The notes under the pieces: generated by a model
Database searches by the model: none
The model's input: only the letters and a program-made list of their open reading frames with translations
Told to the model about the DNA's origin: nothing
Program-made: the position numbers and the translations under genes
Shown here: positions 599 through 41,895 of the stretch, one piece after another
Layout: the number at the start of each line of letters is the position of its first letter
Numbering within the stretch: position 1 is the first letter of the stretch
Source: a virus
Lineage: Duplodnaviria > Heunggongvirae > Uroviricota > Caudoviricetes
Direction: 5' to 3' (one strand)
Length of the DNA: 46,799 nucleotides
Virus record (IMG/VR): IMGVR_UViG_2703718778_000015

Positions 599-2125
599 TC
601 AGTATGCGCGCTGGAACAGCCCGATGCCTTCATTGTCATTTGTCGACGTAATTTCATTACACACCATCCATGAGCCCGGAACTGAGGATAGTATGCCGTC
701 AATGCCATCGGTGTTAGCTTTCATATAGTTTCCGTTTTCGTCTTTGATTAGGGCGCATCGCTTAAGGCGTGAACCCGATACAGTTTCTCCTGGCTGATAG
801 GTTCTGCCGATGTCGGTTATATACGGGCCTAGTGCGGCAATAATGTATGTTCCGATGCTGTAAATTTCCCCGGGTACCAGCCTTCCGGTTGGCCCTTGTG
901 GTCCCTGTGGTCCCTGTGGTCCTTGTGGTCCCTGTGGTCCGGTTTTACCATCCAACCCGGGCAGTCCCATCGGTCCTCGCCCTCCGGCAGGGCCCTGTGG
1001 CCCCGTTTTACCCGCAGGACCTGCCGGACCAACCGGCCCCGGAACACCCTGTACCCCCGCTGGTCCCCTTTCACCTCGTGGCCCTGCCGGGCCTGCATCA
1101 CCTTTGGGACCAGCTGCACCAGCCGGTCCCCGTGGGCCTGCGGGCCCCACTGCACCAGGTGCGCCAGGTTCCCCCCTGTCCCCCTTCGGTCCGGGGACTG
1201 CTGCCCGGGTTGCTGCCTCTTCTGCCTTCGTTTTTGCTGCCTGCACTTCTGCCATTACCGCTTTCACAGCCTTTGGGGTTGCCGCTTTTGTTTCATCATC
1301 GCTGTTGGTATCGCTGCTCAGCTGTACAACACCTTTCTGTGATGTGCTGGCATCCGGAACACTGGCGACACTGCCTGCGGGACCCGCAGGACCTGCGGGG
1401 CCGGTTTCTCCCCGAGGGCCTGCGGGACCTGCCGGACCTGTTGCGCCGGGTTCACCTTTATCCCCTTTCGGGCCGGTTTGCCCTGCCGGACCCTGTGGTC
1501 CGGGTGGTCCGGCCTCTCCACGTGGGCCGGTGTCACCTTTCGGCCCCGGCGGTCCGCCCGGGTCACCTTTATCGCCCTTCGGTCCCTGTGGACCTGTTTC
1601 TCCCCGTTCTCCCTTTGGCCCCGGCTCACCTTTTGGTCCGACCGCCCCCGTTGCCCCGGCTGGTCCCTGTGCCCCTGTGGCACCCTGTGGACCTGTGTCC
1701 CCCTTCTCGCCCGCCGGTCCCCGGGCATTCTCTGCCCGTTTCTTCGCTTCCTCTGCACTCGCCGCCGACGCTTCAGCACGCTTCAGGATTTCCGCTGCCA
1801 CCGCTTCCAGCTCTGCAAGCGCTTTCGGGTAATACTGCGCCTCATCCTGTTCCATCAGAAATTTATTCAGCGTTCCCGGCTCAGAATCCGCCTTCACCAG
1901 AATGTCACCCACATACGACGGGGCGTACCCTTCCGTGTTCAGCGTCACCCGGTACCACCCCGGCTCCACATCAAAACTGTAACTGCCGGTTTCCCCCGGC
2001 TGCCCCTGCGCCACCGTGGTGACTATCACTGTCTCTGTGGTGCGTCGCGCTTTCAGCTCTATGGTGCATCCCGGCACCGGCTTCCCGGTGCCGTCCTTCA
2101 GCACGCCCGATATTCTGACTGTCAT
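599..2125 (-). CDS. Side tail fibre protein with long collagen-like Gly-X-Y repeat region
   Basis: 508 aa. N-terminus ([17 protein letters not shown]...[19 protein letters not shown]) looks like the conserved prophage tail-fibre N-terminal domain; the centre is long GPxGxxGPxG collagen-like repeats; GGGAGA RBS upstream of the ATG. Confidence 0.85.
889..941. repeat. Tandem 9-bp repeats (GGTCCCTGT-like, about 5 copies) encoding GPQ collagen triplets inside the tail fibre gene
   Basis: Direct reading: ggtccctgtggtccctgtggtccttgtggtccctgtggtcc on the plus strand, which is the reverse complement of the GPQGPQGPQ coding sequence. Confidence 0.8.
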
Positions 2126-2309: not shown

Positions 2310-5300
2310 TCACGATGCGGTATCAAAATCGTCTGTATAGGATTTCAGGTAAAACAGAACCGGGTCATGGATCCGAATTTTACTCTTATCATGAAGTATT
2401 GAACCACCCATGTAAAAAAGCACATCTGCTTCATACCTGAATGTAATTTCAACCCGCACATCACCCTGTCCGGCAGGAATACTCCATGAGCCTGACGCAC
2501 TTCCGCCAACATCAGAATATACCGGCTCATATCTGCTGGCGTTTTTGGAAATCTGGACCTCCCGCTCCCCGGTTTTGACTTTGCCTGACCTGGCATGAAC
2601 GACAACTTTGTCATTTATCTTCATGATGAATTCACCTCTGGAAAATGAATACGCCATAAGCATAAGCTTGCGATCAAACGGCATGTTGTCTTTCAGCAAA
2701 ATCATTTTCTGAAAAGTCAGCTGGTTCTGAGTCATTACGCCCTGCCCCATATCAACCGTGTATCCCTTGACGATATCACCAATGATTCGGTCAGCGCTCA
2801 TCGTTCCATTAATGGTGCAGTCTTCCGCAATCGTCACGTTATTCAGCGTACCGGAACTGGCACTGATATTCCCGCTGATATCGGCATTACGGGCCGTCAG
2901 CCTGCCGTCCGGCGTCAGGGAGAATGCCGGGGGATTGCCACCGCTGGTAATGGTGGGGGCGGTAAGAACCTTTATCAGGGCCTCATTGATAAACGTCTGT
3001 CCCCCCTGCGTGACCAGTGCGGGTGTGGTATCACCATTCTCCGGATTAATGAATGCCACACGGTCCGCTGCCAGCAGTATCTGGCTCTGCATCCCGTCAG
3101 GGGTGTTCTCAATACCGGCACCGATACCGGCAATATAGCGACGACCATCCTGCATCTGCTGTAGCTTCACCGCCCACATGCTGTTCAGGTCATTATTTGT
3201 GTCCGTCTGCACACGCTGGATTTGCTGTATGGTGGCGTTCTGGTCCTCCAGCGTTTTACTGACCGTCTGTGTGATTTCATTGCGGGTTTCTGTGATGGTG
3301 GTCTGCATTTCCGCCATCTCGTCCTTCAGCTTGCTGTTGTCAATCTCTGCCCACAACGCCTCTGCCAGATGTGTTTTTCCTATCTTTTCCCGGAAAAACT
3401 CCAGATAGCCCGCAGCATCATCACTGGCCCGTCCACTGGCTTCCACAAAAGCAGATTTACCCACCAGGTTGACGCTGCGCACATAAAACCAGAAAACTTT
3501 CCCGGGTTTAATCTGGCTGCCGGAGACGCTCCACTGGCTGCCGGTCCCAAGATAACGGGCAGACGTTTCCACCTGTGCGGCGTCTGCAATTTTTGCCTCC
3601 GAAAACCAGAACTCAAACTGCACCGTCGGGTCATAAATGGTCAGTTTCGGGACTGCCGTTATCTGAAAATACCCCGGCGTCAGTTCAACACCGGCAGGCG
3701 CTGCCGGTGCGTTAATCCGGAACGTGGTGGTGGCGGGTTCGCCCTGCTGGCCATAACTGTTAATCGCCCTGACCGTCAGGGTGTATTCCCCGAGAGGCAG
3801 GCCACTGAAACGGTGCTCCGTATCGGCAGTGATGGCGGTGGTCAGCAGGCGGCTGTTCTCACCGCTTCCACTGGTCAGGCGCAGACTGAAGCGCACGCCC
3901 TTCACCACCCTCGGCGTGTCCCATTTCGCCAGCGCCAGATACTGGCTGTCAGCTGCGCTCACCTCCACCGTCAGGTGCTGCACTGCCGGTGGGATGACGC
4001 TGTTCAGGGAGCCTGACTGCGGCTCAAAGCGGGCACCGTTATCCACGATGGCTTCTTTTTCCGGTACGTGCTGCACCGCCGTGATGGCAAAGGTGCCGTC
4101 CGTGTTTTCCCGGATGGCCACACAGCGGAACAGGCGACGGCGAAGACCGGGCATTTTCAGTCCCCATACCCCGTATGTCTCCACGCCATCCGGCAAGGGG
4201 CTGACCTGTATCCGGTCCGGCGCGGGGTGTGCGGTGATGTCCACACTTACCGGCTTACCGCTGCCGTTAATCAGGTTCACCGTCGATGCACCTGTCCCCG
4301 GAAGTGTCACTTCACGGTCCAGCGTCAGGGTGCGGGTGGCAGCATCGATGGACAGGACACGTCCGCCGGTCAGGGTCCCGGCATAGTCGTTATCACAGAT
4401 TTCAATAATGTCACCGGGTGTGTGCCGCAGCCCCTGAGACCCGAGTGTGAAATCCACCGTCTGCGTTTCCAGCAGTTCGGTCTTTATCACCCACAGCCCG
4501 GCACGGTGGGCCTGACCGCGGCTGGTACAGCCGAACGCGTCCATCTTCAGCAGGTTGCGTCCGTAGCGCAGTATGGCGTCCGGGTCTTCCACCAGTTCCG
4601 TGGAGGTCTGCCAGCCGTTCTGCGGGTCGGTGTAATTCACCTCCACCGCCGTGTGCCGGTCCTTCAGGGCACTGAAGCTGTAGCGGAACCCCACGCCGTT
4701 ATCATCCACCACCACATCGCTGTTGGTGTACGGCCACACCACATCCGACGGGCGGTCCTGAACGAACGTCAGCGTCTGACCGTTCCATACCGGCATACAG
4801 CGCATCGCCGAGCAGAAATCACTGAGAACGTCCCACGCCTTACGCTGTTGTGCCAGGTACGCATTAAAGGTCATCCGCGGCTCTGTGCCCCCGAAACCAT
4901 CCGGGACCGTCTGGTCGCAGTACTGCCCGATGGCATACAGCGCCCACTTGTCCACATCCGCCGCCCCCAGGCGTTTTCCCATCCCGTAGCGCGGGTGAGT
5001 CAGCATGTCCCACAGACACCAGGCCGGGTTGTTGCTGTATGCCGGTTTCAGACTGCCGTCCCAGATACCGCTGTACGTGCGTTTTTCCGGGTCATAGTTT
5101 GACGGCACCTGGATGATGCGACCGCGGATATGGTAGTTCACCGTCATCTGCTGGCCGCCGAACTGCTCCGCATCCACCTGCAGCCCCACAATGGCCGTGT
5201 TCGGGTAGCACTGTTTCACATCGATGATTTCGGTGTATGACGACCACAGCGTCTTATTCTGCAGCTGGTCCGTGGTGCTGTCCGCCGTCTCCCTGACCAT

Positions 5301-26471: not shown

Positions 26472-26687
26472 CTACTCTCCCCGCGCCGCCTTACGCCGGT
26501 CTTCTTTAATTTTGAAATACAGGTTCGTCAGATATGTCAGCAGACCAAACAGCAGACTCCCCAGCACGCCTATTGCCGCCCACTGAGACGGGGAAACCCT
26601 GTCCAGCAACTGCAGGAACCAGTAGCCCGTTCCCACCGCTGACGTGGTGTATGACACACCTGTTGTGATTTTTTCCATCTGGTACAT
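26472..26687 (-). CDS. S: Pinholin S (phage 21 S21-type), dual-start motif
   Basis: 71 aa; near-identical over most of the length to S21 as remembered ([25 protein letters not shown]...[22 protein letters not shown]); Met1 and Met4 (MYQM) give the antiholin/holin dual start. Confidence 0.9.
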
Positions 26688-27305: not shown

Positions 27306-27387
27306 TGTACGAAAGCATCTTTTCTTTACATTCTCCATTGGGATTACCTCCGCCAGCTTCCGTTCCTGCCGCTGGCGGTTTTTTTTT
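27306..27387 (+). ncRNA. Candidate small RNA of about 80 nt (promoter to intrinsic terminator), antisense orientation relative to the late operon
   Basis: Promoter above plus the terminator at 27349-27387; no ORF in the interval. Confidence 0.35.
27349..27387 (+). terminator. Intrinsic terminator on the plus strand
   Basis: ccgccagc-ttccgttcctgcc-gctggcgg followed by T9; no T-tract on the minus-strand side. Confidence 0.6.
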
Positions 27388-27392
27388 GCCGG

Positions 27393-29372
27393 TTATGCTG
27401 ATGCCCGGCTTTCGTTAACGTTGACAGTGACCGTATCAAGCAGTACCGGATACGTCGCTTTTGTCCCCGTGATATCTGTCAGCGTCAGCGTATCTGCTGT
27501 AAAGCCATCATTTGTCCACATCACAAGGTCAAATGCCGTCTGCTCTGCACCATCAATCACCGGAACAACTCTTTCGCTGTTATTTCCCGCAAAGCGGAAA
27601 ACAACCGTATGCCAGTTATGGTCAAACGTACCAAATGTACCCAGTTGTGCATTCGAGGAGCCCTTCTGGTGCATCAGATTAAGATTTGATGTATCCGTCT
27701 GAAGGAAGAATGATGCCAGCATACTGTTTGCTGTCGCGCCTGACGCCCACTGCGACACCGGCCAGTAGATACCAAAGACAAACTGTCCGTTCACCAGCTC
27801 GCTTCCATCCGGAATTTTGAACCGTACGGCAATTTCCCCCCCCTTGCTGAGAAGATTTTTTGCCTCCTCCACTGCAATAGTACGGAACATTTTCCAGGAC
27901 GTCAGTTTACCGGGCTGTTTTTCCAGTCGCAGCGCTTTCCGTCCACCGTCATCAGTCACAGTGCCTTTGCCGCCGGAAGCGCCCCACTGCTGCTCTGTCA
28001 ATGCACCATTTCCACTGTTCGCATCATATTCAGCCACCGTCCTGGTACTGCTCACGGCCTCATCATGACCAGTACCAGCAACACCGCCATCCTGCGGTTT
28101 CTCAACATCCGGTGTCCCCGGACTGACAGGCGTTGTACCACCCGACTGCGGTGCGCTCTGCCCGGTAAGGAACGATAATGTCCGCCCGGCGTACTGCAAA
28201 ATGGCACCTGCCAGGCGGTCTGAAACAAGGCCTCTTCGCGCCCATGAACTGAAGTGCGTTTTACGATCGGCTGCCGTCCAGTTACTGGCAGTGCGTGACG
28301 CAGCGCCATAGTATCCCGCCGGGATAATGTCCGGATCTTCTGACGGCTCGTTTGTCGGCACATTCACACCATGCTCATCCGTCATCAACGGCACAAAGTG
28401 AATATTCTGCGCAGCTTTTCCTTTATACCCACCGTAAACCGCCTCATACGGCACTGCATACCTTTCCTTCCAGTAGTACGTGGTATCACCGCAAATCCAC
28501 GGGACGCTGGCCGTTGTCCCGCCAGTACACTGCTCTGCCACATCTGCCAGTTCCGTACGGAACTGATTTACCATGGCAAGGAAAAGCGCATTGTGTTCTG
28601 CATGTCTCCCCGAACTGACATCTTTTTCTCCCTGCATCCAGATCACTGATAACAGCACGTTCTTCGGATTTTTCTTCAGGGCCGCACGGGTTCTGCTGAC
28701 CAGGTCATGATACAGCGGTTTATCCGCCCCCCACAGGGACGAGCCTGCGGTCGCTCCCGACGCTTCGTTAAACGCCCCCTCGGCCCCCGCAGTAAATCCC
28801 GAATCGCCACGGCCACATGGAACAAGAAGGATACCCGCATTCGCAGGCATAAACGGCAGCAGCTTTTTGGCAACATGCAGAGCATGCCCCACACAACCGT
28901 ACTGTCCCTTACTCAGGTCTGCATGAGGATGATTCAGGTTACTCATATCCTGCACATCATGCAGACAGTGGTCTGCCGGAATGATGTCGTTATATTTACA
29001 GGCGGCACCACCCGGCGTCACCGTACTGCGACGCGCCAGCTGTTTAATACGCGGGTCCGGACGGTCATATGTCTCCGGCAGCGGCAGCCCTTCACCAAAA
29101 GACATTGAGTTTGACTGCCCCGCCAGAACAACAACAAAGTAATACTCCGGTTCGCTGGTGGTGCTGATAACTGTGCCTTCTCCATCCGACGGCTTCACCA
29201 CCACAGGTGTGGTGACATCACCTTCCGCCGCAATGGCCTGCATCAGGGTATAAGGCGTGATGGCCACCGGGCTGCCAAATGGCTGCCACCCCTCCTTCAG
29301 TTTTTGAGTCAGTCGCTCCGCAAGGTCTGACGGCGACGCCGCCCTGACCACATCGTAGTGTTTAAATGTCAT
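27393..29372 (-). CDS. nanS-p: Sialate O-acetylesterase NanS-p-like protein (prophage-encoded)
   Basis: 659 aa; recognised as the esterase found between stx and the lysis genes in Stx-type prophages. The family call is from memory of those proteins and of the locus position, not a motif scan. Confidence 0.75.
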   Translation of the reverse strand: MTFKHYDVVRAASPSDLAERLTQKLKEGWQPFGSPVAITPYTLMQAIAAEGDVTTPVVVKPSDGEGTVISTTSEPEYYFVVVLAGQSNSMSFGEGLPLPETYDRPDPRIKQLARRSTVTPGGAACKYNDIIPADHCLHDVQDMSNLNHPHADLSKGQYGCVGHALHVAKKLLPFMPANAGILLVPCGRGDSGFTAGAEGAFNEASGATAGSSLWGADKPLYHDLVSRTRAALKKNPKNVLLSVIWMQGEKDVSSGRHAEHNALFLAMVNQFRTELADVAEQCTGGTTASVPWICGDTTYYWKERYAVPYEAVYGGYKGKAAQNIHFVPLMTDEHGVNVPTNEPSEDPDIIPAGYYGAASRTASNWTAADRKTHFSSWARRGLVSDRLAGAILQYAGRTLSFLTGQSAPQSGGTTPVSPGTPDVEKPQDGGVAGTGHDEAVSSTRTVAEYDANSGNGALTEQQWGASGGKGTVTDDGGRKALRLEKQPGKLTSWKMFRTIAVEEAKNLLSKGGEIAVRFKIPDGSELVNGQFVFGIYWPVSQWASGATANSMLASFFLQTDTSNLNLMHQKGSSNAQLGTFGTFDHNWHTVVFRFAGNNSERVVPVIDGAEQTAFDLVMWTNDGFTADTLTLTDITGTKATYPVLLDTVTVNVNESRASA

Positions 29373-29553
29373 GAATCCTCCCGGTCGGGATAATGTTGTG
29401 AGTCAGATAAGGAGCGAGCTGAAGTCCGGAAGTTACAGGACAATGGCAGGAGGAAGACTACAGCCCGCAATACGAAAAAGGCCGCGCAGTTGCGCAGCCT
29501 TATGAATTCTGGTTAAAATCCATTCGATTATAAAAATGTATATCTCATGCTGT

Positions 29554-29580
29554 TGCCCGAACCCACTCGGGCTTTTTTTT
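29554..29580 (+). terminator. Intrinsic terminator on the plus strand, within a cluster of GC-rich stem-loops
   Basis: gcccgaacccactcgggc followed by T8; the adjacent hairpin gcccctccggagaggggc (about 29595-29612) has a U-rich tail on the minus strand, making the pair bidirectional. Confidence 0.5.
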
Positions 29581-29944
29581 GCCCACAAGAAAGCCCCTCC
29601 GGAGAGGGGCTAAAGCCGCGTATCTGTATCATCATGCACATGGTGCCGGGTGCCTCCCGGTGAGTTCAGCCCGGTGCCACTAAACCCGCGTCATTCTCGT
29701 TTTGATAATCAGAGATTATACCGTCACCAGTCGCCCCTCCGCTCAGGGGGATTCACCATGCCAGTTTCTTTTAACAAACTCCCCGCAAACCAGACAACAG
29801 TCAACCGCCTGAATTGTGAGGTATTTAAAAATTTCAACGGGTAACTGATACCCTGCTAATCGCCTGATGCTTTCTTTTTCAGCAACGGGAAAGCAACAAC
29901 CACCACACCCATCAGCCGCCCATTTACCACAAATAAAAAAGCCT

Positions 29945-30142
29945 TCAGGACTGAAGGCGTCTGTAACAACCGAACTGATAGTCTGCCAGCCCAGCCATAA
30001 CAAGCTGGGTCAGTATTAACTGACAGCGTTCGCGTGAAAGGTACGTATTCTGTGCAATCTCCCCGACTGTCGCCGGTTCGGTGACGCTTAATTCATTAAA
30101 CACCACTCTGGCGGTTTCGGTCATATCCTGCTGTTTCAGCAT
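29945..30142 (-). CDS. Hypothetical small protein (65 aa), possible winged-helix fold, between tR'-like terminator and nanS-p
   Basis: ORF from the internal Met (MLKQQDMTETARVVF...); the upstream part of the ORF-track version overlaps the terminator hairpin; occupies the slot where stx genes sit in Stx phages. Confidence 0.4.
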   Translation of the reverse strand: MLKQQDMTETARVVFNELSVTEPATVGEIAQNTYLSRERCQLILTQLVMAGLADYQFGCYRRLQS

Positions 30143-30263
30143 GTCTTTTTCCCTTTTCCGGTTAACGTGACACACCAATAACTCTTGTCGAAAAAGCCAG
30201 CAAGCTGAAAGAACGGTATTAATAACCACCAGCGAATTTATTGCGCTGCTGTATATTACGGAC

Positions 30264-30288
30264 ACAAAAAAACCACCTTCCGGTGGCT
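30264..30288 (-). terminator. tR'-like intrinsic terminator about 75 bp downstream of the Q-like gene
   Basis: Minus strand gccaccggaaggtggc followed by T7; preceded by a second stem-loop (gcgaaa...tttcgc). Confidence 0.6.
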
Positions 30289-30359
30289 TCCTTGTGCGAA
30301 AAAAACTTGCATTTCGCCTCGCGATACAGCCTTGCGAAGCTTATACGGATTGAAGCAGT

Positions 30360-30932
30360 TTATTGATCAGTTTGCAACATTTTTTTCTCTGTAACAAAAG
30401 CCATACGCATGGGGGCATGTAACATAAATTCAGATATCCCCAACCACTGATCAATTCGGCGTCTGCACGTAACCAACGTCCACTCAGGATGATCTGCATT
30501 TAACCTTTCGGCCATTTTCAGTTTGCTCATTCCCCGTCCTTCGTACCTTTGCCGGAGAATATTGATTAGTCCGGGATATTCCCCAAGCACCTCACTGATA
30601 ACGCGATCAATAATCAACGCCTCTGTGTCTGTACAATGTGACAACCAGCTCTTCTGCTTCCCTCTGGTCATATCCCGAAAAAATGCCTCAAGTTCCGGTT
30701 TTTCCAGCCCGGATTTCTTCATTCTGCGTAAAACCTCATTAACTGCTGTTTTCGTCAGCTTTTTCGAAACCAGTAACCGGTTAAACATATTTCCGGATTT
30801 ACCCCCACCGATATACGACCACCGCCCCCACATCCGTAATTTCCCCTGGATCCAGACTGCTTCCAGCGTGTTCAGACGTAAATGTTCGCCGCTTTTGCCT
30901 GTAATTTCCGGATATATCATATTTACGCTCAC
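30360..30932 (-). CDS. Putative late-gene antiterminator (Q-like), assigned mainly by position
   Basis: 190 aa; sits between rusA and the tR'-like terminator/lysis region; does not resemble lambda Q as remembered, so family membership is unverified. Confidence 0.45.
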   Translation of the reverse strand: MSVNMIYPEITGKSGEHLRLNTLEAVWIQGKLRMWGRWSYIGGGKSGNMFNRLLVSKKLTKTAVNEVLRRMKKSGLEKPELEAFFRDMTRGKQKSWLSHCTDTEALIIDRVISEVLGEYPGLINILRQRYEGRGMSKLKMAERLNADHPEWTLVTCRRRIDQWLGISEFMLHAPMRMAFVTEKKMLQTDQ

Positions 30933-31288
30933 TCACTCTCAATTTTGTAAATCTTCACACCCAGCCGTCCACCAGATACTGGCTGACCACGTACAATATT
31001 GATTTCATCAAACTGCTCGTCATCAATGAGCACTCCCGCATGCGTCAGCGCATCCAGCGGTGCTTTCAGAATGTTGTCCAGGTCGCGACGACGCTTATCC
31101 GGTGGCTCTGCAATCACCTTTATCACCAGCCTTCCGGACAGGCTTAATTTCAGCCGCTGCTGGCGAACAATAAGCGCCACAGCCCGGCGATAACGCTTTC
31201 CCTCCTCCGAGATAAAATATGTGCTGCCACGGCGTCGCCAGTAAGTGTTCACCGTCGGCGGGTAAGGTAAAACCAAATCTATGAGCAT
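30929..31288 (-). CDS. rusA: Holliday junction resolvase RusA
   Basis: 119 aa; RusA-like motifs (PPTVNTYWRRRG, DKRRRDLDNILKAPLDALTHAGVLIDDEQ). Confidence 0.88.
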   Translation of the reverse strand: MLIDLVLPYPPTVNTYWRRRGSTYFISEEGKRYRRAVALIVRQQRLKLSLSGRLVIKVIAEPPDKRRRDLDNILKAPLDALTHAGVLIDDEQFDEINIVRGQPVSGGRLGVKIYKIESE

Positions 31289-32797: not shown

Positions 32798-32953
32798 TTA
32801 CTCCTCAGGTTCGTAAACTGTGAAGACAGCGACCTCCGTCTGGCCGGTTCGGATTCGTACCTCGCAGAGGTCTTTCCTCGTTACCAGTGCCGTCACTATG
32901 ACGGTTAAACAGATGACGATCAGGGCGATTAACATCGCCTTTTGCTGCTTCAT
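32798..32953 (-). CDS. hok: Hok-family type I toxin (small membrane peptide)
   Basis: 51 aa, MKQQKAMLIALIVICLTVIVTALVTRKDLCEVRIRTGQTEVAVFTVYEPEE, one residue from HokD/RelF as remembered; strong AAGGAGAAG RBS. Confidence 0.9.
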   Translation of the reverse strand: MKQQKAMLIALIVICLTVIVTALVTRKDLCEVRIRTGQTEVAVFTVYEPEE

Positions 32954-33244
32954 AGCCTGCTTCTCCTTGCCTTTCGGCACGTAAGAGGCTAACCTAGATT
33001 TGCCGTTCATAGATTGAGCCTCAGATTAATGTTAAGCGTCTTGCAGGACGCGTAATGTTAACTGGGGCTTTTCTCTATCTGCCTTTTGGTATTCATGCCT
33101 GAGACAGATAGCCTCAAGCACCCGCAGCAATTCTACTTAACTATCCTTTCCCCGCAAATCGTTTTTATCCCCAGCGACAAATCGAATACACCACCAGCGC
33201 CACCGCCATTGCGATCCCTACCGTTGTGAATGCCTCAGGCCAGG

Positions 33245-41387: not shown

Positions 41388-41895
41388 TGCTTAATGAATC
41401 CTTAAAACTGTGGTGATTTTAAGGATACCACCTCGCCTGACGTGGTTAAAAGCAGGCACACAACACGAAAGCGCACGGCGAGGTTTCTGGTTCATAGATG
41501 GCTTGTCGTTAAATTTTCGTCGACCGTGCGCTCCCGGTTGTGGCAATCCGCGAAACGGCGCGGCGGTAAGTATGGCGGGGGTACTCTTCTCCCCCTGTGG
41601 AGCACCGGGTTGTCAGGTTGACCATACGCTTAAGAGACAACCACGCTGCAACGCCCTCTGTTATCCATTTTCTGGTGACGTTTGGCGGTATCAGTTTTAC
41701 TCCGTGACTGCTCTGCCGCCCTTTTTAAAGTGAATTTTGTGATGTGGTGAATGCGGCTGAGCGCACGCGGAACAGTTAAAACCAAAAACAGTGTTATGGG
41801 TGGATTCTCTGTATCCGGCGTTAATTGTTAACTGGTTAACGTCACCTGGAGGCACCAGGCACCGCATCACAAAATTCATTGTTGAGGACGCGATA

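Follow-up and report, generated by a model that had tools for sequence, protein, structure and literature searches.

Organization of the Q-nanS-p interval in an stx-negative lambdoid prophage: a probable reduced 5' end of the late operon with convergent small RNA genes

Genes and features between Q and nanS-p

The DNA analyzed here, referred to as the window, is the whole 46,799-nucleotide viral record IMGVR_UViG_2703718778_000015 (Caudoviricetes). The interval under study, positions 29,373 to 30,359, lies between the late-gene antiterminator gene Q and a nanS-p-type esterase gene. The element is a lambdoid prophage of the Escherichia coli type that is negative for the Shiga toxin genes (stx), and its late operon runs on the minus strand. 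The interval is very probably the reduced 5' end of the Q-dependent late operon, known as the "moron" site. The following features were assigned, in the direction of late transcription.

30932..30360, minus: late-gene antiterminator Q of the DUF1133 type, 190 amino acids (aa) from a GTG start
30340..30377, minus: candidate promoter PR', overlapping the end of Q
30262..30297, minus: tR'-type intrinsic terminator, hairpin CCACC-GGAA-GGTGG at 30286..30273 and T7 at 30272..30266
30226..30233, minus: Chi octamer GCTGGTGG, located upstream of the 65-aa gene and with conserved counterparts in phiP27, 1720a-02 and MSB1_4I
30142..29945, minus: gene of a 65-aa winged-helix protein (phrog_331), named "TrmB family transcriptional regulator" by NCBI
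29935..29958, minus: intrinsic terminator over the stop codon of the 65-aa gene, GCCTTCAGTCCTGAAGGC followed by T6
29856..29930, minus: 24-codon mini-open reading frame (mini-ORF), a remnant of tciB (DUF3927) whose last 17 codons are the true TciB C terminus
29905..29912, minus: deletion joint GGCGGCTGaTGGGTGT/GGTGGTTG, where the spacer after the 65-aa gene is fused to the interior of tciB
29790..29581, minus: STnc100/EcOnc27-type small RNA (sRNA) gene, Rfam RF02076, with terminator AGCCCCTCTCCGGAGGGGCT at 29611..29592
29525..29580, plus: anti-sRNA gene of the AsxR/AgvB/EcOnc03 family, with terminator GCCCGAACCCACTCGGGC and T8
29490..29519, plus: putative anti-sRNA promoter as read from the sequence, TTGCGC, 18 nt, TAAAAT
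29473..29501, minus: fourth late-strand terminator, hairpin 29501..29478, AAGGCTGCGCAACTGCGCGGCCTT followed by T5
29372..27393, minus: nanS-p-type sialate O-acetylesterase gene, the first long late gene (Pfam and PHROG)
26687..26472, minus: S21-type holin gene downstream of nanS-p (Pfam scan)

The gene order on the minus strand is Q, tR'-type terminator, 65-aa gene, about 570 bp, nanS-p, holin and lysozyme, where the lysozyme is annotated in the near-identical prophage of JNEC-KY179. Q was identified by Pfam PF06576 (DUF1133, 345.9 bits), by PF06530 (Phage_antitermQ, 32.3 bits, cut-off 26) and by phrog_753, "anti-termination protein Q-like" (250.6 bits). The nanS-p product carries the Pfam domains DUF1737, SASA and DUF6645 and matches phrog_143 at 1005 bits; NCBIfam gave no match for Q, the 65-aa protein or NanS-p. 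A Q gene, a promoter-proximal intrinsic terminator and downstream lysis genes are all present, as in a lambdoid Q-dependent late operon. An Stx-converting phage would carry stxA and stxB between Q and nanS-p, and the window does not. Searches with StxA, StxB, the methyltransferase discussed below and TerB gave no significant tblastn match in the window, and ARAGORN found no tRNA gene in the whole window, as stated in the initial annotation.

About 570 bp of the interval had been described as non-coding. The segment 29944..29373 (572 bp) does lack a long ORF. It is not empty non-coding DNA: two sRNA genes recognized by Rfam and a gene remnant lie within it. Two ORFs without a Pfam match, 29650..29844 on the plus strand and 29743..30003 on the minus strand, were rejected as genes because their frames are broken by 4-nt and 1-nt indels relative to phage 933W. 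Small "hypothetical protein" coding sequences antisense to or within STnc100 in public records (P27p27 of phiP27, gp77 of JLK-2012 and positions 4443-4562 of comparison locus L023; 29650..29844 is the window equivalent) are probably annotation artifacts.

Module boundaries and the deletion joint

The synteny with Stx phages that had been proposed for this region was borne out by BLAST: phage 933W aligns with window 29819..29300 at 81% identity, from 46 nt past its stxB2 stop codon onward. Upstream, window 30274..29905 is common to WGPS2 (89%), phiP27 (92%), 1720a-02 (95.6%) and Salmonella (77%), and the 65-aa module has a Klebsiella match of 73% over 30152..29902. In the Stx2 phages phiP27, Stx2a_WGPS2 and 1720a-02 the order is Q, 65-aa gene, methyltransferase, tRNA-Ile/Arg/Arg, stxAB, STnc100 and nanS-p. 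The 65-aa protein of these phages, 97-100% identical in amino acid sequence to that of the window, thus coexists with stx and is encoded upstream of methyltransferase, tRNAs and stxAB. This arrangement argues that the 65-aa gene is a constant element upstream of the cargo and not the occupant of the toxin slot, where the initial annotation had placed it. In E. coli MS20674, tciA and tciB (TerB and DUF3927) are found exactly at the position of stxAB. JNEC-KY204, which shares the DUF1133 Q backbone, carries the methyltransferase and tRNAs with no cargo, and phage JLK-2012 carries other tRNAs together with tciAB. The comparison provides a map, at base resolution, of the exchangeable modules from Q to nanS-p, with the cargo (stxAB, tciAB or nothing) between the fixed boundaries 29905 and 29819.

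Window 30243..29905 corresponds to positions 992..1330 of the MS20674 locus (L016) and window 29910..29584 to L016 3501..3823. The 2,170 bp of L016 1331..3500 are missing from the window; they hold the methyltransferase, three tRNAs (tRNA-Ile/Arg/Arg), tciA and 110 nt of tciB. A three-way alignment that includes MS20674 reads ...GGCGGCTGGTGGGTGT/TAGGGG... behind the 65-aa gene, ...GTGCTGGTGGCGGGTGT/GGTGGTTG... at the MS20674 site within tciB and ...GGCGGCTGATGGGTGT/GGTGGTTG... at the window joint. Both parental sites contain Chi (GCTGGTGG) plus GGGTGT in a 14-16-bp imperfect direct repeat, and the copy of Chi at the window joint is mutated to GCTGATGG. The alignment points to recombination between these two short Chi-containing direct repeats as the route by which the cargo was lost.

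Chi octamers are frequent in the window as a whole, with 11 in 46.8 kb against 2.0 ± 1.4 in shuffled sequences, and 9 of the 11 are on the minus (late) strand.

Residues 38-54 of TciB are encoded at 29909..29859 with 100% identity (tblastn), and the first 37 codons are deleted. The mini-ORF scored 21.6 bits against Pfam DUF3927 (PF13064), below the cut-off of 25; of the about 54 aa of a full-length TciB, which would be expected to reach the PF13064 gathering threshold, only residues 38-54 remain here. The mini-ORF is probably a pseudogene. The 84-bp junction segment 29904..29820 is 100% identical to the tciB 3' end in phage JLK-2012 and occurs in 1,728 E. coli genomes. It did not match any of the Stx phage loci compared, and no stx remnant was detected in it with blastn-short. 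Among 5,426 complete E. coli genomes, about 30 contain the whole short form at 90-98% identity; it circulates as a variant and is not restricted to the window. Of the two origins that had been considered for the stx-less slot, an ancestral empty site or a deletion, the aligned sequences favor the second. With the 3' remnant of tciB in place, the site is best read as a deletion scar, and what it lost was tciAB-type cargo and not stx.

The 65-aa winged-helix gene and its methyltransferase neighbor

The 65-aa protein has 335 homologues, among them proteins of Escherichia, Shigella, Salmonella, Klebsiella, Citrobacter and Buttiauxella. Comparison with the Salmonella gene gave pS of 0.66 and pN of 0.06, and with a dN/dS of ~0.04 the gene is real and under purifying selection. 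The corresponding PHROG entry, phrog_331, has no function label, and no mention of the RefSeq accession of the protein was found in the literature. The initial guess of a winged-helix protein was supported by the AlphaFold model (pLDDT 81.5), in which helices 4-17, 26-33 and 37-49 and strands 53-55 and 59-61 form the three helices and beta-hairpin wing of this fold. Foldseek matched the model to domains of the winged helix-turn-helix (wHTH) kind in IclR, MarR, Rrf2, Mlc, CymR and NsrR at TM scores of 0.75-0.78, with a best E-value of only 0.007. The Pfam TrmB match was below the cut-off (18.1 versus 25.6 bits, E = 0.0024). Even homologues of 50% identity keep the recognition helix, CQLILTQLV(M/L)AGL, without change.

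A conserved segment of the 5' untranslated region (UTR), GUUAUUGGUGUGUC (30178..30128, minus), is able to pair with GACAUGCUGAAAC, start codon included. The stability of this start-codon hairpin was not significant (p ~0.14), and its alignment contained one-sided changes only (G-U/A-U) and no double compensatory ones.

The neighborhood of the gene was surveyed in 17 species-level enterobacterial loci, with one genome per species. An N6/N4 methyltransferase gene lies ~150 nt downstream of the 65-aa gene in 16 of the 17 loci, and the Q genes upstream belong to four different families. Phages phiNP, cdtI and yong2 show the same linkage. The M.EcoGII family to which such enzymes belong consists of non-specific adenine methyltransferases that are toxic when expressed and silent in lysogens, and phage 1720a-02 has been named as carrier of a close M.EcoGII homologue (PMC5778455). 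From the genomic linkage we infer that the 65-aa protein is functionally tied to the methyltransferase, most likely as its regulator, the copy in the window having become uncoupled from it. In at least 12 enterobacterial genera, the small "hypothetical" gene behind Q can thereby be recognized as a conserved partner of the M.EcoGII-type enzyme, and its function is directly testable.

The spacer of ~140 nt between the 65-aa gene and the methyltransferase gene is more conserved across six genera than the adjoining coding sequence (L013 5212-5354, also L012, L005, L008, L019, L020 and L021); the window retains only 29930..29905. RNAalifold predicted a multi-stem structure, 5 pairs of which carry double changes, and no Rfam family matched. 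The spacer could be a structured 5' UTR of an undescribed type, or else an operator.

One tentative explanation is that the 65-aa protein controls the toxic methyltransferase in the manner of the C proteins of restriction-modification systems, acting on the 140-nt spacer and on its own conserved 5' region. The window copy would then be a functionless orphan that has not yet decayed. The linkage, the invariant recognition helix, the conservation of the spacer beyond that of the coding sequence and the toxicity and lysogenic silence of the enzyme all fit such a role. However, no binding site was identified, the TrmB match is sub-threshold, and the conserved spacer may instead be a structured RNA. 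Furthermore, the gene is intact in the window and the orphan form is kept in ~30 genomes, which suggests a role independent of the methyltransferase.

Two convergent sRNA genes

The cluster of GC-rich hairpins reported in the initial annotation was confirmed: terminator-like hairpins are enriched, with 7 in 29000..31000 against 2.3 ± 1.4 in shuffles. Rfam assigns the cluster to two RNA genes, its hairpins being terminators and bodies of the STnc100/EcOnc27 RNA and of the AsxR-family anti-sRNA. The STnc100 match (RF02076) scored 152.1 bits against a gathering threshold of 47 and spans the full model, 1-206; the conserved block of the region begins at 29820. Its position, 3' of the moron cargo, on the late strand and upstream of nanS-p, is the same in 933W, WGPS2, 1720a-02 and MS20674, and it shares homology with the sequence immediately 3' of stxB in 933W and WGPS2. 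STnc100 overlaps the experimentally detected EcOnc27/sRNA103 just 3' of stx2B (PMC12711010; PMC12370729). EcOnc27 was shown in O157 Sakai as an Hfq-bound transcript of ~235-247 nt (PMC4104026 supplement).

The gene on the opposite strand matched AsxR (RF02703) over 29525..29577 with 63.0 bits, at the gathering threshold of 63. AgvB (RF02702) scored 43.4 bits, below its threshold of 56, and the CACAACA mimic of GcvB targets is absent; the RNA is not AgvB. Members of this anti-sRNA family have 51-60 nt, a conserved 3' region of ~42 nt that includes the terminator, and, at the 5' end, a variable seed (14-18 nt) that determines which sRNA is sponged. The length, the 3' region, the variable seed and the convergence with a late-strand sRNA were all found in the window. 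Its 3' 36 nt match EcOnc03 without a difference and AsxR with 2 differences. The 5' seed CGAUUAUAAAAAUGUAUA resembles that of AsxR apart from 4 substitutions within nt 1-18, and the 5' end of EcOnc03 is lacking. By its sequence the RNA is a further seed variant and not AsxR itself, since none of the three published variants matches. The same variant is present in E. coli MS20674. With it, the family, which rewires the Hfq networks of the host, gains one more candidate sponge. AsxR proper is a sponge of FnrS whose 5' region is complementary to the terminator loop of FnrS, and AgvB is a sponge of GcvB. Duplex energies were calculated for the window anti-sRNA and authentic AsxR with FnrS and GcvB against shuffled controls; the value for the window anti-sRNA with FnrS was no better than shuffles.

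Both hairpins noted initially are present, one on the plus strand with T8 (29555..29572) and one on the minus strand with a U-rich tail (29611..29592), and they place the terminators of the two sRNA genes back to back. The -10 element TAAAAT of the putative anti-sRNA promoter ends 6 nt short of where the Rfam model begins. This promoter is 100% conserved in 933W and is under the threshold of the consensus scan. Mapped triphosphate 5' ends are available for homologues of the anti-sRNA, and the O157 homologues are abundant Hfq-bound primary transcripts (PMC4104026).

The hairpins could in principle serve only as terminators or insulators of the late operon, with the Rfam matches reflecting conserved terminator DNA rather than independent sRNAs. 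We consider this improbable. It would be in line with the terminator form of the four late-strand hairpins, with the lack of a promoter at scan threshold and with the function of STnc100, which is still undefined in the literature (PMC12370729). However, the STnc100 match covers an entire 206-nt model, far beyond a terminator, the plus-strand TAAAAT is conserved at the right distance, the T8 terminator points against the late operon, and the O157 homologues are the Hfq-bound transcripts mentioned above.

Tree et al. described in 2014 convergent sRNAs between a moron coding sequence and a conserved downstream ORF. The O157 pairs are AsxR/EcOnc02 and EcOnc27 in Sp5, AgvB in Sp10 and Sp17, and EcOnc03 in Sp9 (PMC4104026). 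A 2026 preprint lists STnc100, AsxR and AgvB as regular neighbors of prophage Pas sRNAs (10.64898/2026.05.13.724894). The suggestion of a regulatory or cargo hotspot was therefore right, but the lambdoid moron site with its convergent sRNAs had already been established (PMC4104026).

Some relatives carry two tandem STnc100 copies (L016 3621-3826 and 4104-4313; L002 3536-3772 and 4023 onward), ~250-480 bp apart and with another terminator-like hairpin between them. In MS20674 and JNEC-KY179 the distance is ~480 bp. The single copy of the window has the 5' flank of the first copy and the body of the second, which is consistent with a second deletion by recombination between STnc100 copies.

Candidate PR', tR' and the late-strand terminators

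At the end of Q, the candidate PR' consists of TTGCAA (30377..30372), a 17-nt spacer and TTCAAT (30354..30349). It is followed by the -10-like TATAAG (30345..30340), which could be a sigma-dependent pause element. The pattern TTGnnn-17-TTSAAT plus a TATAAG-like element was found by alignment to be conserved 3' of DUF1133-type Q genes in three lineages; those sharing the spacing include E. coli JNEC-KY204 and Salmonella, and the spacer sequences differ. The candidate -10 has no A at position 2 and was not called by the consensus promoter scan. We tentatively propose the two elements as PR' and its pause element.

The stem of the tR' hairpin is lengthened to 16 bp by an A-rich 5' flank. The 75-nt leader with tR' has a predicted stability of -31.1 kcal/mol (z = -4.1), and 0 of 200 shuffles were as stable. 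All seven aligned loci have a GC-rich hairpin with T6-7 at this position and the stem sequences are all different, which gives good comparative support for tR'. A leader RNA of ~75 nt would be expected from PR' and tR' in the lysogen. The terminator at 29935..29958 has -10.5 kcal/mol (z = -3.4). That at 29473..29501, located 105 nt upstream of nanS-p and overlapping the -35 of the anti-sRNA promoter, has -18.3 kcal/mol (z = -4.25, 0 of 200 shuffles) and is identical in 933W. The four late-strand hairpins are significantly stable.

Neither in sequence nor in Rfam did the window leader resemble StxS or IsrK. In the tR' region of WGPS2 (L013 4860-4887), a sub-threshold isrK match of 21.4 versus 50 bits was clipped by the search boundary, and it was gone in a whole-locus search at E <= 0.001. 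An IsrK-like pairing of the leader RNA with the 5' UTR of the 65-aa gene was also considered; 71% of shuffles paired as well, and it was kept as a hypothesis only.

Other RNA genes in the window

A toxin-antitoxin locus of the hok/sok type is located at 32798..33123 on the minus strand (sok RF01794, 112 bits; Hok-like ORF 32798..33010), and a DicF sRNA gene (RF00039, 76.7 bits) at 41670..41721 on the plus strand. A very weak Esr41-like match at 27312..27386 (plus; 23 bits versus a gathering threshold of 102) lies just downstream of nanS-p, a position at which Pas/Esr41-type sRNAs have been reported in related prophages (10.64898/2026.05.13.724894). Leu_leader, Esr41, rpsB and other weak Rfam matches were far below gathering and were dismissed.

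Discussion

The features can be joined into one model of the reduced late-operon head. Transcription from PR' at the Q end would stop at the strong tR' and leave only a leader RNA in the lysogen. Next comes the 65-aa gene with its own terminator, which in almost all relatives is the first half of a two-gene cassette completed by the M.EcoGII-type methyltransferase. In the window, ~2.17 kb was lost between the Chi-containing repeats, with 17 tciB codons left behind. STnc100/EcOnc27 on the late strand and the anti-sRNA on the other strand follow in convergent orientation, and then the further late-strand terminator, nanS-p and the lysis genes. The late-strand terminators would, to judge from homology with Stx phages, hold nanS-p and the lysis genes silent in the lysogen. 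The two sRNA genes would be transcribed there and their RNAs would work through Hfq, with the anti-sRNA sponging a host sRNA. After induction, RNA polymerase modified by Q would pass all four terminators.

Several points weigh against this model. The choice of deletion over insertion rests on the truncated tciB frame and the rarity of the short form rather than on a phylogeny, and the rarity compares about 30 of 5,426 genomes with 1,728 genomes holding the tciB 3' segment, a segment that intact tciB genes carry too. Both promoter assignments fall below the threshold of the consensus scan, and we infer expression in this strain. The published EcOnc27 transcript is longer than the 206-nt Rfam model, which does not fix the 5' end or the promoter here. 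The AsxR score is exactly on the gathering threshold, and the seed is unlike that of every characterized anti-sRNA. Even for the validated AsxR-FnrS pair, the duplex energies were not distinguishable from those of shuffles, and they do not point to a target of the window anti-sRNA.

A more far-reaching proposal, which we regard as doubtful, is that the 65-aa gene, its 5' leader with the start codon in a predicted hairpin and the 140-nt spacer form an undescribed control module that gates the toxic methyltransferase at the head of the late operon, in analogy to control by C proteins or to riboregulation of the IsrK type. In that case the regulator in the window would be a copy uncoupled by nature; separately, the host sRNA sponged by the anti-sRNA variant may be one different from FnrS and GcvB.

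That the interval is an ancestral toxin slot, never filled or deleted of stx, with the 65-aa ORF as cargo, would suit the Stx phage-like order of Q, terminator, small gene, nanS-p, S and R and the 81% identity of the distal half to the 933W stxB-nanS spacer, but it is highly improbable because the 65-aa gene occurs together with stx in phiP27, WGPS2 and 1720a-02, the last 17 codons kept are those of tciB and not stxB, a search for stx-derived sequence found none, and related prophages have tciAB or nothing at the stx position.

As a discovery the reduced late-operon head matters little: the locus is ordinary, the description of this architecture dates from 2014, and Rfam already has both RNAs. 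What is new is modest and consists of the precise limits of the modules, the joint at the Chi-containing repeats, the seed variant of the anti-sRNA and the wHTH-methyltransferase linkage.

Compared with known systems, the window shares with the O157 moron-site pairs the position between a moron coding sequence and a nanS-p-type ORF downstream of Q and PR', the convergence, the back-to-back terminators, an anti-sRNA of ~55 nt and an STnc100-type partner. It differs from them in the anti-sRNA seed and in having no stx upstream. With the phiP27/WGPS2/1720a-02 type it has in common Q, a tR'-type terminator, the 65-aa gene, STnc100 and nanS-p, and the module boundaries of these phages coincide to the base with window 29905 and 29819. 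In contrast to them, the window lacks the methyltransferase, tRNA-Ile/Arg/Arg and stxAB, its Q belongs to a different family (DUF1133), and the tciB remnant replaces the 3' flank of stxB. The tciAB cargo regions of JLK-2012 and MS20674 are 99-100% identical to the window over the 3'-terminal 91 bp of tciB and the sRNA/nanS-p leader that follows, whereas tciA and the first 37 tciB codons are deleted in the window. The predicted leader RNA would resemble lambda 6S RNA, StxS (PMC7547250) and IsrK of Gifsy-1 (PMC4825925), which are likewise short RNAs made from a constitutive promoter just after Q and ended by a strong terminator. The likeness may extend to the IsrK-orf45 arrangement, as the first downstream ORF in the window also has its start codon in a predicted hairpin.

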